NCBI GenBank assembly: GCA_964486045.1
Contig: CAZALK010000029.1
Coordinates: 741-25,965 of the forward strand
Source: an uncultured archaeon
GTDB taxonomy: Archaea; Asgardarchaeota; Lokiarchaeia; Sigyniarchaeales; SOKP01
Length of the DNA: 25,225 nt
Direction of reading: 5' to 3'
Part shown: piece after piece, positions 1 through 25,225 of the stretch
How positions within the stretch are numbered: position 1 is the first letter of the stretch
How the letters are laid out: the number at the start of each line of letters is the position of its first letter
Program-made: the position numbers and the translations under genes
Notes under the pieces: model-generated
Database searches by the model: none
The model's input: only the letters and a program-made list of their open reading frames with translations
What the model was told of the DNA's origin: nothing

Positions 1-295
1 ATAATACTGCAGGATGGATTGTTAATTTTACAAGACTTGCTAGTTTGGATTGGACAAACATAACTTTAACAGAATCCCAAATAACAGATTTACAAAATTA
101 TGTTTTAATTGGAAGTTCAAACAAAATAACTTTAGATTATACAAATATTACAAATATAGGATTATTTAATCAAACAACTTTAGCCTTATCCATTAACACA
201 ACAAATAATATTCAAAATCTTTTAGGGGGTTTACCTATATTAAATAATACTGCAGGATGGATTGTTAATTTTACAAGACTTGCTAGTTTGGATTG
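1..295. repeat. Terminal overlap, identical to 24931-25225 (circular contig, unit length 24,930 bp)
   Basis: Both copies run ataatactgcaggatgg...gctagtttggattg, and the fibre reading frame continues across the join. Confidence 0.93.
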
Positions 296-2129
296 GACCA
301 ATGTAACAATAACAGAAAGTCAGATAAGTGATTTAGTTCATACAGTTAATGGAACAAATATCAATGTCTTAGATGTCAATGCAAGTTCTGCAACAATTCA
401 TGGCGACTTGAATATAACAGCTAACTTAACTGTTAGAAAAAATATTGATATTACGAATGGTAGTTTATTCCAACCAGTTTATCCAAGTGATGATGGTTTG
501 GTTTTATATATGCCCTTCTCAGAACCAGATGGTTCAACACAACTTGACAGAAGTCCTTATGGAATTGATGGGACTGTTTCTTCTGGAGTCAATTGTAATA
601 TTACTAATGGAAAGTATGGAGGTGGTTGTCATTTTAATGCTGTTGATACAAATAGTCGGATTCGACTTTTAGGGGAAGGTGCTACTTTTTCATCAGATAT
701 TTTTACTGCAGAAGCATGGATTAGGCAAGATGCACAATTTATTGGTTCTTTTGGATATATTATAGATAATCAAGACTCACCTAACGATGGTTGGGGTATA
801 GCTATTGAAAGTGGAAATAGAGTTTTTTGTAATTACAATTTGCCTTCTGTAATTGGAACGACTGTTCTCTCGATTTCGGGGGATACATGGTACCATGTTG
901 CTTGTGTTTCTGATGGTGTGAATCTAACTGTTTATGTTAATGGAATTCAAGAGGGTGTTGGAGCAGTAAGTGGAAGTATAAGTGAAACTGCAGATGCTAC
1001 TATTGGTAGGAGAACTACTGCAGGTGCAAACAGTGTTATTAATGGATCATTAGATGAAGTAAGGGTATATGTAAGAGCTTTAACAGCAGAAGAAATAAGA
1101 ACACATTATTTAAGAGGGCAAGGTTTTGGGGCTTCAGGTGCAATTACTGCTGATAAGTTTAGGGTTGTGAATACTTCTGGGAATATTAATTTTATTGTTG
1201 ATGAATCAGGTAATGTAGGAATAGGAACAACCAGTCCTCAAAATAAATTAAATGTTGTTGGAAGTTTTAATGTTTCAAATTCAACAGGTTTTTTAGGATT
1301 GTATCAAGGTAGTGATGCAAAAGTTGGAATCGGGACAGCAACTCCAGATAGAAATTTAGATGTTGAGGGTACAGGAGCAGTTTTAATTAAAACACAAAAT
1401 GGGGTTGCTAGTACATTGTATGGTGTGAACTCAGTTAATTTCGGAATTGTAGGAACATTGAGTAACCATGATTTTAGAATTTTTACTAATAATATTGTTA
1501 AATTCGTTGTAGAAGCAGGTGGCAACGTTGGGATTGGGGATACAACTCCAGATGCAGAATTAGATATTGTTGGAGATAGTTCTACTACAACAGACCCTAT
1601 TTTAATAGTTGATTCCTCAGGTTCTTCATCAGTTATTTTTTTGACAACTAGTGAAATACATCGTGGAACTGTGAGAGCTGATATTTCAGGAAATATTGTT
1701 TTAAATGCACAAGGTGGTAATCCTTATATAAGATTAAATGATGGTGTTCCTAATAGTGGTGCAGGTACTCAATATTTTTGTAGTGATTCTACAGGACAAG
1801 TAACAGTCTCATCATCTTGTGGTTCTTCTGCTCTAATAAAGAAAAACATAACTAATTTAGTAATTGATACTATGTCTATAATAAATCAGTTAGTACCTAG
1901 AAAATATCAATGGATTGGAAATAATGAAATCTCTATAGGATTTATCGCTCAAGAAATGGAATTTATATTGCCAGAAGCAATAGTCTATGACCAAGGAGGG
2001 AATGTAAGCGGATTTAATTATGATGTTGTTACAGCTTTAAACGTTAAGGCAATTCAAGAACTAAAAGCAGAGAATGATCTATTGAAATCAGAGTTATGTA
2101 AAAAAGACGTTACTTATGGTTGGTGTTAA
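3..2129 (+). CDS. C-terminal part of 1245-aa secreted fibre/adhesin (starts at 23322): LDWTN modules, LamG domain, GNVGIGT repeats, C-terminal peptidase S74-like intramolecular chaperone
   Basis: Frame is open from base 3. LamG motifs: GLVLYMPFSE, FTAEAWI, WYHVACV, YVNG, GSLDEVRVYVRALTAEEI. S74-like tail: SSALIKKNI, IGFIAQEM, YDVVTALNVKAIQELKAEN. Many N-x-S/T sequons. Confidence 0.85.
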   Translation, partial: NTAGWIVNFTRLASLDWTNITLTESQITDLQNYVLIGSSNKITLDYTNITNIGLFNQTTLALSINTTNNIQNLLGGLPILNNTAGWIVNFTRLASLDWTNVTITESQISDLVHTVNGTNINVLDVNASSATIHGDLNITANLTVRKNIDITNGSLFQPVYPSDDGLVLYMPFSEPDGSTQLDRSPYGIDGTVSSGVNCNITNGKYGGGCHFNAVDTNSRIRLLGEGATFSSDIFTAEAWIRQDAQFIGSFGYIIDNQDSPNDGWGIAIESGNRVFCNYNLPSVIGTTVLSISGDTWYHVACVSDGVNLTVYVNGIQEGVGAVSGSISETADATIGRRTTAGANSVINGSLDEVRVYVRALTAEEIRTHYLRGQGFGASGAITADKFRVVNTSGNINFIVDESGNVGIGTTSPQNKLNVVGSFNVSNSTGFLGLYQGSDAKVGIGTATPDRNLDVEGTGAVLIKTQNGVASTLYGVNSVNFGIVGTLSNHDFRIFTNNIVKFVVEAGGNVGIGDTTPDAELDIVGDSSTTTDPILIVDSSGSSSVIFLTTSEIHRGTVRADISGNIVLNAQGGNPYIRLNDGVPNSGAGTQYFCSDSTGQVTVSSSCGSSALIKKNITNLVIDTMSIINQLVPRKYQWIGNNEISIGFIAQEMEFILPEAIVYDQGGNVSGFNYDVVTALNVKAIQELKAENDLLKSELCKKDVTYGWC

Positions 2130-23319: not shown

Positions 23320-23321
23320 AA

Positions 23322-25225
23322 ATGAAAGGGGTTAAATTGTTTTCTCTAATTTTTTTATTTATTATTGCAATGTCTTTAGTAAGTTCCCAGTTAGGTTATA
23401 GCAATCCAACACTCCCAAAGTTAATTTCAAATCTTCAAACTTGTTCTGGAACTGATAAAGTTTCTTCAATTAAATTAACAAGCTCAGGAATAGATATAAT
23501 TTGTTCTTCAGATAGTGTTAGTGGCGGGGGATCTAATACTACTGAATTTTGGGATAACCTAGACACACCTTCTGATATTAACATTAATGATCTATCCTTT
23601 TCTTTTACAAGCGGTTCTGTTATTTTTTCTGATGGTGTTGGATTGCAAGAAGATAATGCTAATTTATTTTGGAATGATACAAGTAATAGATTGGGTATCG
23701 GTACAACTTCACCCCAAACTCATTTACAAATTGATACTGATTCAGCAGATAGTACTGTTGATGTTTTGACTTTGCATAATCCTTCTAATAATCCAAATGC
23801 GGGAGTTGCTATAGTAATGAGTAGTGCAGATAATGATAGAGCAAAACTTTCAATCGTTGCAGGTTTAGTGGGGGATGGAGAACTTCATTTTATTAATGAT
23901 TTACCTGCAACAGCAACAGATAGATTTACAATCTTGGAAAATGGTAACGTTGGTATAGGTACGACAAATCCAACTGATTTATTACATATAAATGATGATA
24001 TTAATAATGCAGTATCGATTCAGATTTCAGGTAAAACAACAAGTAATGGTTTAACAGTTGGGATAAATTCTATAGACCAAGTTGCTTTTATCAATAGGGA
24101 AAATACAGATATGTATTTTGAAACAAATAATACAGAAAGATTGAGAATAGATAAAGATGGAAATATTGGTATTGGAACGGATAGTCCAACCACACTTTTA
24201 CAGGTTAAAGGGAATATAAGTGCTTTAGATTGGACAAATGTATCAATAACAGAATCTCAAGTAACAGATTTACAAGATTATTATCTTCTATCTAATCCAA
24301 GTGGATATTTTAATTTATCAGATTTCAATATAGCAAATTATTATTTACTTTCTAATCCATCAGGATATTTCAATCTAAGTGATTTCAATATTGCAGATTA
24401 TTATCTTTTGTCTAATCCAAGTGGATATTTTAATTTATCAGATTTCAATATAGCAAATTATTATTTACTTTCTAATCCAAGCAGTTATTTTAATTCAACA
24501 ACATTAGTAGAAGCAAATTTAAATGTTAATTCTTCAAATTTCTGGGATAATTTAAATATTCCTACAGATTTGAATAATAAACTAACTTTAACAGAAGCAA
24601 ATATTACAGATTTACAAAATTATCCTGTAAATAATACAGGAAATTGGATATTGAATTTTACAAGATTAGCCAGTTTAGATTGGACAAACATAACAATCCC
24701 TTCTTCACAAATAACTGATTTTGATTCTTCTATAGAAAGTTTGTTTAATTCTTCTTCTTGGAATCGTTCTTCAACAAATGTTTTCTTAGCAAATACTGGA
24801 GATAGTGTTGGAATAGGTACAACAACACCAAATGCTCTTTTACAAATTGCTGGAAACATAACTGCAAATGATTGGTCTAATATTACAATAACAGAAAGTC
24901 AAGTTACAGATTTACAAACATATATTATAAATAATACTGCAGGATGGATTGTTAATTTTACAAGACTTGCTAGTTTGGATTGGACAAACATAACTTTAAC
25001 AGAATCCCAAATAACAGATTTACAAAATTATGTTTTAATTGGAAGTTCAAACAAAATAACTTTAGATTATACAAATATTACAAATATAGGATTATTTAAT
25101 CAAACAACTTTAGCCTTATCCATTAACACAACAAATAATATTCAAAATCTTTTAGGGGGTTTACCTATATTAAATAATACTGCAGGATGGATTGTTAATT
25201 TTACAAGACTTGCTAGTTTGGATTG
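23322..25225 (+). CDS. N-terminal part of 1245-aa secreted fibre/adhesin (continues through the junction to 2129); absent from track
   Basis: MKGVKLFSLIFLFIIAMSLVSSQ signal peptide, GAGGT upstream, GIGTT repeats, no stop before the window end, same frame as 45..2129. Confidence 0.88.
   Translation, partial: MKGVKLFSLIFLFIIAMSLVSSQLGYSNPTLPKLISNLQTCSGTDKVSSIKLTSSGIDIICSSDSVSGGGSNTTEFWDNLDTPSDININDLSFSFTSGSVIFSDGVGLQEDNANLFWNDTSNRLGIGTTSPQTHLQIDTDSADSTVDVLTLHNPSNNPNAGVAIVMSSADNDRAKLSIVAGLVGDGELHFINDLPATATDRFTILENGNVGIGTTNPTDLLHINDDINNAVSIQISGKTTSNGLTVGINSIDQVAFINRENTDMYFETNNTERLRIDKDGNIGIGTDSPTTLLQVKGNISALDWTNVSITESQVTDLQDYYLLSNPSGYFNLSDFNIANYYLLSNPSGYFNLSDFNIADYYLLSNPSGYFNLSDFNIANYYLLSNPSSYFNSTTLVEANLNVNSSNFWDNLNIPTDLNNKLTLTEANITDLQNYPVNNTGNWILNFTRLASLDWTNITIPSSQITDFDSSIESLFNSSSWNRSSTNVFLANTGDSVGIGTTTPNALLQIAGNITANDWSNITITESQVTDLQTYIINNTAGWIVNFTRLASLDWTNITLTESQITDLQNYVLIGSSNKITLDYTNITNIGLFNQTTLALSINTTNNIQNLLGGLPILNNTAGWIVNFTRLASLD
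24276..24494 (+). repeat. 60-bp coding tandem repeat (~3.6 units, 120-bp higher-order period) encoding (D/N)YYLLSNPSGYFNLSDFNIA
   Basis: Units start at 24276, 24336, 24396 and 24456. Confidence 0.9.
24931..25225. repeat. Terminal overlap, identical to 1-295
   Basis: Direct comparison. Confidence 0.93.

Follow-up and report, generated by a model that had tools for sequence, protein, structure and literature searches.

A complete 24,930-bp circular genome of a probable spindle-type archaeal virus, most likely from a DPANN host

We analysed a stretch of 25,225 nucleotides (hereafter the window) from contig CAZALK010000029.1 of assembly GCA_964486045.1. The window is a complete circular double-stranded DNA genome of 24,930 bp. 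We read it, with a probability of about 0.62, as that of an uncultivated spindle-type archaeal virus from a large unclassified sediment lineage, whose host is most likely a small-genome archaeon of the DPANN group. An earlier account of the same DNA, made by a model from its letters (the sequence-only reading), had proposed a complete circle of about 24.9 kb with a terminal overlap and an in-frame gene across it, and had taken it for a probable new, spindle-shaped-like archaeal virus, possibly of Pace- or Woesearchaeota.

The circle was borne out. Positions 1-295 match positions 24931-25225 exactly. The window occupies positions 741-25965 of its parent contig (G000:C29, 25,965 bp), where it is preceded by 640 bp and a gap of 100 N, and these 640 bp are identical to window positions 24291-24930 with zero mismatches. 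Together, the 295 nt within the window and the 640 bp before the scaffold gap give a redundancy of 935 nt, and hence a circle of 24,930 bp. Joining position 24930 to position 1 yields a single open gene, running from 23322 to 2129, for an adhesin of 1,245 amino acids (aa). The join lies inside this internally repetitive gene, the repeat count of which is possibly mis-assembled and is less certain than the closure itself. The cyclic order of all core genes is identical in an independently closed relative (G001:C24, with a terminal repeat of 141 nt), and the same virus is present in further samples at 99.4-100% identity.

The genome was curated to 42 genes and is 92% coding. A hydrophobic 19-mer was detected in 19 of the 42 gene products; the one in the recombinase is a false positive, leaving 18 membrane or secreted proteins, the number expected from the sequence-only reading. 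Pfam and PHROG scans took in the larger proteins, several small open reading frames (ORFs) of the cassette described below lying outside them. As had been noticed in part before, these scans revealed no terminase, portal, HK97 or double-jelly-roll capsid protein, lysin, polymerase or Rep protein. Matches were limited to LamG, an S74 chaperone, tail-fibre pieces, a tyrosine recombinase, zinc ribbons and a ribbon-helix-helix (RHH)/antitoxin-like protein. Since HK97 capsid, portal and terminase were absent from the proteins big enough to hold them, the genome falls outside Caudoviricetes. The window contains neither an Rfam match nor a tRNA. None of the observations named beforehand as speaking against a virus of this kind was made: the capsid candidate had no cellular match, the ends had no chromosomal flank, and apart from short binned contigs nothing pointed to a bacterial host.

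A core of about 13 genes is syntenic and keeps its cyclic order in 15 or more relatives, on contigs that are all shorter than 44 kb, and none of the family contigs examined is clearly flanked by host genes. The small-gene cassette shifts position between relatives. Five relatives are listed in a virus catalogue. The lineage comprises about 400 ATPase clusters at 90% identity, yet it corresponds to no Pfam or PHROG family and has few catalogue entries. What is new is the complete genome of a probably unnamed family; the type of virus is already known, and the novelty claimed earlier holds for the genome and probably for the family, not for the kind of virus.

Kinship with spindle-shaped viruses was found for the ATPase by profile comparison. 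A profile of 21 family ATPases matched the ATPases of TPV1 (57.5 bits), LSV-48N (54.1 bits), His1 (ORF16, 45.9 bits) and SSV1 (B251, 18.6 bits). On the ORFs of the Asgard bin that contains the contig, 229 of which carry a Walker A motif, it reached at most 15.8 bits. Because all four spindle-virus ATPases score above the Walker-A ORFs of the bin, the kinship of the family ATPase with its counterparts in TPV1, LSV-48N, His1 and SSV1 is a specific one. Among solved structures, the ATPase model matched the N-terminal domain of Zot best (2r2a; Z 8.7 over 147 aligned residues, root mean square deviation 3.1); folds of RecA and AAA type scored within 1 Z of it, and TrwB and VirB4 were also similar in fold (Z 7.0-7.7). 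A Foldseek search against viral models placed ORF286 of ATV second (6e-5). The ATPase has 395 homologues, and the best 120 lie on contigs of at most 43.6 kb. Tblastn with the ATPase gave no match in the phage collection, and single-protein scans of viral and metagenome contigs likewise found none.

The product of 8152-8496 is our candidate for the major capsid protein. This protein and that of 8561-9178 each have two transmembrane (TM) segments in a two-helix hairpin architecture, and the predicted model of the 114-aa candidate is a hairpin (H5-36 and H50-104; pLDDT 75, pTM 0.36). The helix-coding DNA is near-identical in the two genes, with a longest identical block of 52 nt, and likewise in the gene pairs of L003-L005; some relatives have one hairpin gene and others two. 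The capsid candidate has 25 close homologues and forms 53 clusters at 50% identity. In Atlas, a language-model comparison, the nearest clusters were viral (0.91) and the nearest named ones were VP1_VP3 (0.81) and His1_capsid (0.79), which we take as a lead only. The hairpin protein gp15 of TPV1 came in at rank 4 among 150 decoys for the capsid profile. The candidate had no Pfam or PHROG match, nor a match to PF25665, although that model recognises His1 ORF21, and tblastn with a divergent capsid candidate found nothing in the phage collection. The earlier proposal of a spindle-type capsid at this position is supported by the two-helix architecture; as to homology to known spindle capsids, sequence, profile and Foldseek comparisons stayed within decoys or gave no specific match. 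Divergent capsid homologues in G1199 and G1182 have basic leaders that resemble class III signal peptides.

A large membrane-anchored adhesin, a small hairpin protein of capsid architecture and a B251/ORF16-like, Zot/pI-type ATPase lacking TM segments are three traits of spindle-type viruses that the genome has. The ATPase kinship and the module layout support the virus-like genome of spindle type that had been proposed, and from these we infer the particle shape. The 1,079-aa adhesin matched CDS12 of LSV-48N with a narrower profile, a match that faded with a wider one. The family profile of 3050-3640 weakly matched an unannotated ORF of TPV1 (L050:14033-14338, a 101-aa membrane ORF between large genes; E 3e-5 to 9e-4 in small searches). 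The very basic protein of 835 aa, which has 850-1,100 aa and a conserved C-terminal block in relatives, is a candidate DNA-condensing protein. Profile searches turned up nothing comparable in His1, SSV1, TPV1 or PAV1, and the protein probably replaces a small VP2-type nucleoprotein. Tandem repeats of 9 nt at 21965-22090 encode its Pro/Arg-rich segment, and other repeat units are found in the same gene of relatives. Neither this protein nor the tyrosine recombinase and the 247-nt inverted repeat had been mentioned in the sequence-only reading. The features of the window are the following (repeats and the non-coding region carry no strand).

1..295: terminal direct repeat; copy at 24931-25225; redundancy of 935 nt with the 640 bp upstream in the contig
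23322..25225, plus strand: 5' part of the secreted fibre/adhesin of 1,245 aa; signal peptide and GIG-type repeats; 40 sequons for N-glycosylation; runs across the join; variable among relatives
3..2129, plus strand: 3' part of the same adhesin; LamG (PF13385, 2e-23) and C-terminal S74 chaperone (PF13884, 1e-8)
2130..2888, plus strand: core membrane protein, 252 aa; signal peptide and three TM segments; 11 relatives
2860..3096, plus strand: core small soluble protein, 78 aa; 7 relatives
3050..3640, plus strand: core four-TM protein; class-III-like leader with KRGQ; translation probably starts about 17 codons inside the ORF
3648..6887, plus strand: core adhesin/tail protein of 1,079 aa; signal peptide and 48 sequons; three TM segments at the C terminus; LamG in homologues
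6887..7654, plus strand: two core three-TM proteins, 142 and 112 aa, directly after the 1,079-aa adhesin
8152..8496, plus strand: 114-aa candidate for the major capsid protein; two sequons and two hydrophobic helices; gene with a strong ribosome-binding site
8561..9178, plus strand: long paralogue of the capsid candidate, 205 aa; helices separated by a sequon-rich insert; DNA near-identical to the short paralogue at both helices
9394..10101, plus strand: core two-TM protein, 235 aa; 12 relatives
10103..11531, plus strand: variable small genes; membrane proteins and one zinc ribbon (10973-11194)
11525..11771: left arm of the inverted repeat, 247 nt, 99%
11841..15393, minus strand: about 16 small genes forming a cassette, with products that include zinc fingers, a coiled coil and membrane peptides; preceded by a promoter resembling a B recognition element (BRE) and TATA box; position varies among relatives
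15394..16030: non-coding region; two relatives have kept its AT-rich palindrome and its run of TAA; candidate origin or early promoter
16173..16419: right arm of the inverted repeat; adjoins the stop codon of the recombinase gene; contigs of three independent assemblies end 36-62 nt inside it
16418..17326, minus strand: core XerA-like tyrosine recombinase; R135, H251, R254, H278 and Y287 intact
17307..17815, minus strand: upstream of the recombinase, a two-TM protein of 83 aa and an RHH/antitoxin-like regulator of 86 aa
17991..18905, minus strand: core P-loop ATPase; Walker A GDRGNGKS, Walker B CWDDEA; Zot/pI-like; no TM segment
18908..19456, minus strand: core 182-aa protein upstream of the ATPase; 14 relatives
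19507..20121, plus strand: accessory acidic protein, 204 aa; N-terminal anchor
20147..22654, plus strand: core very basic protein, 835 aa; 28% K+R, net +170; conserved C-terminal block; 13 relatives
22651..23319, plus strand: core soluble protein, 222 aa; no Pfam, PHROG or Atlas match

The best model for the recombinase was the archaeal XerA (124.6 bits, under the cut-off of 220). The recombinase has 341 homologues, the best 120 of them on contigs of at most 37.4 kb, and an identical protein is encoded on a 6.6-kb contig. Its family profile did not match D335 of SSV1 and reached the SSV-type integrase of TPV1 only at E 0.03. No tRNA-like attachment (att) site was found in the window, and no provirus was found among the 240 top ATPase and recombinase homologues. 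Dimer resolution or integration at a dif-like site are as plausible for this enzyme as integration into a tRNA gene. The recombinase gene adjoins one arm of the 247-nt inverted repeat (99% identical), which encloses 4.4 kb of small genes and the non-coding region. Three independent assemblies stop inside the right arm, as is expected of a genuine two-copy repeat. A long inverted repeat of this type was absent from all relatives examined, and inversion of the cassette by the recombinase is a possibility for the genome of the window only.

Several side observations concern these sites. A third, degenerate copy of the repeat arm (57 nt, about 71%) lies at 7647-7703, after the gene at 7316-7654. 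Relatives carry a conserved element of about 55 nt in both corresponding positions, behind the recombinase and behind the 7316-7654 orthologue. By eye, the copies in the window share its first 13 nt and last few nt; they gave no score with its profile. This element is a candidate recombinase site or terminator. In three relatives, tRNA-Met(CAT)-like sequences lie right behind the recombinase on the opposite strand (L021 ~7700-7770, L022 ~13040-13115 and L023 ~6490-6560). We considered them as att sites and rejected them, reading them as whole tRNA-Met genes. A 13-kb element (G592:C24:61405-74780; L041, L042), on a 218-kb contig of the same phylum, is integrated with an att repeat of 18 nt in a tRNA-Arg gene that has an intron. 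It encodes a tyrosine recombinase, a distant ATPase homologue, a serine recombinase and a primase-like protein, and has no capsid or adhesin gene. Similar elements are present in G1049:C8 and G1056:C11. The G592 element was rejected as a provirus of the family, the distant ATPase and the recombinase being all that they have in common. Another relative (G001:C15; L036, L037) has a terminal duplication of 3.1 kb that is only 85% identical; it holds a 350-aa ORF resembling a reverse transcriptase by eye, and may be a two-strain chimera or a cassette like a diversity-generating retroelement.

The contig was placed, most likely through its composition, in the bin of an Asgard archaeon, which measures 5.2 Mb, has an archaeal 16S and seven matches to the actin family, and is 7.8% contaminated. 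Its tetranucleotide correlation with this bin is 0.966, and that of the larger contigs of the bin is at least 0.99. Two contigs of the bin, C40 and C45, have 58-59% GC in a bin of 31% GC and are clear contamination. The share of CGN among Arg codons is 0.11 both in the virus and in the DPANN bin G001; in 26 chunks of the Asgard bin, which have the same GC as the virus, it is 0.23-0.54. No hit to the capsid profile was obtained in 399 other Asgard genomes. Close capsid genes were found in just one other species genome, that of a 0.8-Mb archaeon with three such elements, whose cellular contigs resemble the virus in codon use (r 0.976 vs 0.948; CGN 0.11) and carry pilin-type KRG leaders. The ATPase profile was found in 18 of the 390 genomes of a small-genome archaeal order, in 5 of them strongly, on whole virus-like contigs. 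From the genome sizes (0.5-1.4 Mb) and gene content, and not from a taxonomic label, this order would be Pacearchaeales. Relatives occur in five small DPANN bins; single short contigs of the family also occur in Asgard and bacterial bins. Archaeal bins, BRE/TATA-like promoters and the XerA-like recombinase are compatible with an archaeal host. The four extractable spacers of the one CRISPR array detected in the Asgard bin and the tRNAs of the bin did not match the virus. A spacer search at the DNA level over 400 Asgard genomes, with two candidates scored per genome, gave AT-rich noise only, and the one candidate that was checked lay within a coding gene.

Three observations favour a DPANN host: the codon use, the lack of the capsid gene in all 399 other Asgard genomes and the relatives in five small DPANN bins. 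The host is most likely a small-genome DPANN archaeon (Nanoarchaeota/Nanobdellota, Pacearchaeales-like); we estimate about 65-70% for DPANN, 15% for Asgard archaea and the rest for other archaea. The Pace-/Woesearchaeota host suggested by the sequence-only reading is thus the best one at present, by an indirect route (an Asgard bin, and no spacer or provirus found).

A number of results weigh against a spindle-type virus with a DPANN host. Related ATPases are present in non-viral integrated elements (G592, G1049), and are known from satellites and plasmids too. When the capsid family was compared with the capsid proteins or candidates of His1, SSV1, TPV1, PAV1 and LSV-48N, hhalign and hidden Markov model scores were within the range of two-helix decoys. 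Foldseek with the capsid candidate gave 0 matches in the PDB and none under E 2.6 in BFVD, a VIA-wide fold search gave generic coiled coils only (Z at most 6.1), the Atlas fold search was generic, and a PDB sequence search gave nothing significant; no listed spindle capsid structure came up in the fold searches, which does not exclude the fold. Concerning the host, the CGN share is 0.28-0.30 in two other DPANN bins (small samples), and the capsid profile also found 0 in 399 other genomes of the DPANN class. Among the genome sets, the search with the ATPase profile covered that of the small-genome order. The contig itself is in an Asgard bin, and a close ATPase homologue (P0032, on a 3.7-kb contig) is in a Promethearchaeota metagenome-assembled genome (MAG). 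All host links are bin co-occurrences, and no family spacer, att site or provirus was found.

These points leave room for other explanations. The capsid family without measurable homology to spindle capsid proteins, the Zot/pI-type ATPases that also serve filamentous inoviruses and the giant basic protein unmatched in His1, SSV1, TPV1 and PAV1 would all fit a virus that has hairpin capsid proteins and an ATPase for extrusion, yet builds a filamentous particle or a pleomorphic, enveloped one, its hairpins having arisen independently of the His1 and SSV1 capsids. However, the ATPase profile specifically matches the four spindle-virus ATPases, the pair of capsid paralogues and the adhesin with three C-terminal TM segments and small membrane proteins after it agree with the layout of SSV1, DNSV and LSV-48N, and very low sequence similarity is usual among spindle viruses; we consider another shape unlikely. 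A plasmid-like or conjugative element, in which the membrane proteins and the ATPase form a DNA-transfer channel, would account for the 18 membrane or secreted proteins, for the TrwB- and VirB4-like fold of the ATPase, and for a resolvase-like recombinase with no provirus found. It appears rather improbable in view of family scans without relaxase, VirB4/TraG pair or Rep gene, the presence of one small ATPase only, the tail-fibre-like adhesin with its S74 chaperone, the five relatives in the virus catalogue and the strongly signalled pair of hairpin paralogues. The circle might also be an assembly product, either a provirus or longer element collapsed at the adhesin repeats or a 4.4-kb cassette misplaced at the 247-nt repeat, given that the join lies in a repetitive gene beside a 100-N scaffold gap, that other assemblies break at the inverted repeat and that no relative has such a repeat. 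The 935 nt of exact redundancy, the full core gene set in the cyclic order of a closed relative and the lack of host genes make this very improbable, and breaks at the repeat arm are the expected effect of a genuine repeat in two copies.

The same spindle-type virus could instead infect the Asgard archaeon of its bin, or another non-DPANN archaeon of the sediment, and would then represent an Asgard family distinct from Wyrdviridae. The bin is an Asgard genome by its 16S and actin-family matches and has the same GC, a Promethearchaeota MAG holds one close ATPase homologue, and Asgard archaea are known to have spindle-type viruses. Set against this are the capsid gene missing from all 399 other Asgard genomes, a viral Arg codon use outside the range of the bin, the lack of a spacer or tRNA match in the bin, its contamination of 7.8% and the recurrence of relatives in small DPANN bins; an Asgard host is unlikely.

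What is known of fuselloviruses, His1 and wyrdviruses suggests the following cycle for a spindle-type virus of a DPANN archaeon. The pair of hairpin paralogues would insert into the host membrane and be glycosylated by the host. The soluble Zot/pI-like ATPase would thread the genome, condensed by the 835-aa basic protein, into the hairpin shell, which would be extruded or would bud without lysis. The attachment end may be built from the 1,079-aa adhesin, held by its TM segments, together with the small membrane proteins that accompany it and the variable fibre with LamG and S74. As no gene for replication was recognised, host enzymes probably copy the genome from the non-coding region at ~15.4-16.0 kb, partly conserved in two relatives. 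The XerA-like recombinase would resolve dimers, integrate the circle, or both.

A bolder proposal, which we hold to be doubtful, describes a non-integrating, plasmid-like family of hairpin-capsid viruses of Pacearchaeales, in which a protamine-like protein of 800-1,100 aa condenses the DNA and, in the member described here, the XerA-like recombinase flips the 4.4-kb cassette of origin and early genes between the 247-nt repeats, controlling copy number. The Flp-driven flipping of the yeast 2-micron plasmid would be an analogue. The intact recombinase adjoining one arm, the real repeat and the lack of a provirus among the 240 top homologues are consistent with flipping; the long repeat missing in all relatives examined and the inverted form, which was not seen, speak against it.

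Pace- and Woesearchaeota are abundant in sediments. A literature search, subscription papers being outside its scope, found no described spindle-shaped virus for them or for the lineage of the window; spindle-type viruses have been described for Nanohaloarchaeota and Asgard archaea. The complete genome supplies marker profiles for naming the family and for testing the reach of spindle-type viruses across DPANN, which bears on their proposed presence in the last archaeal ancestor. It also carries a warning: AT-rich circles binned into Asgard and bacterial genomes may lead to false host assignments.

Compared with known systems, the element works like a spindle-shaped virus outside Fuselloviridae and Halspiviridae, and is not assigned to the wyrdviruses. 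Fuselloviridae are marked by Sulfolobales hosts, shared core genes and an integrase gene that is split at attP when the virus integrates into a tRNA gene; the present genome has no SSV1-type integrase, and among the ORFs of SSV1, B251 alone matched, weakly. SSV1 differs by an integrase gene split by attP and by its small DNA-binding VP2; it is alike in that VP1 and VP3 share an annotated direct repeat, as the capsid paralogues of the window share near-identical DNA blocks. His1, the point of comparison for Halspiviridae, is linear with inverted ends and a protein-primed polymerase, whereas the present genome is circular and no protein-primed PolB was found. The likeness to both viruses lies in the ATPase (His1 ORF16, SSV1 B251), capsid homology to either not being detected. 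TPV1 (Thermococcus prieurii virus 1) and PAV1 have LamG adhesins and circular genomes, and TPV1 gave the best ATPase match; TPV1 differs by its SSV1-type integrase and MCM helicase. The Wyrdviridae are spindle-type viruses of Asgard archaea; their His1-like capsid proteins have about 80 aa, and most of them encode a polymerase or a rolling-circle endonuclease (10.1101/2021.07.29.453957). By description, they resemble the present virus in having one or two capsid paralogues, an adhesin and a pI-like ATPase without TM segments. The capsid candidates of the window have 114 and 205 aa, and neither a polymerase nor a rolling-circle endonuclease was found in it.

LSV-48N of Haloferax (PP151251) is an imaged lemon-shaped virus with chronic, non-lytic infection (PMC12714723), for which Almyrocitroviridae has been proposed (PMC13612827). 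It has a circle of 24.9 kb, a related ATPase (54 bits) preceded by a gene of about 190 aa, and an adhesin with signal peptide and three C-terminal TM segments followed by two small membrane proteins of similar size, a likeness of layout joined by the weak adhesin profile match. It differs by 61% GC, two integrases, a proven provirus state and a replication-initiator-like gene; its capsid candidates do not match those of the window, and only two genes have any similarity. DNSV-1 and DNSV-2, nanohaloarchaeal viruses with genomes of 21-22 kb, a DPANN host and an AAA+/Zot-like ATPase (10.1101/2025.02.15.638363), were compared by their published description. They live in a hypersaline habitat and in another DPANN phylum, and the LamG/S74 adhesins and the 835-aa basic protein belong to the virus of the window. 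Common to both are a pair of paralogous hairpin proteins, which in the window are capsid candidates, and, besides the ATPase, a tyrosine recombinase and a large adhesin; a DPANN host would be common too if our reading of the host holds.

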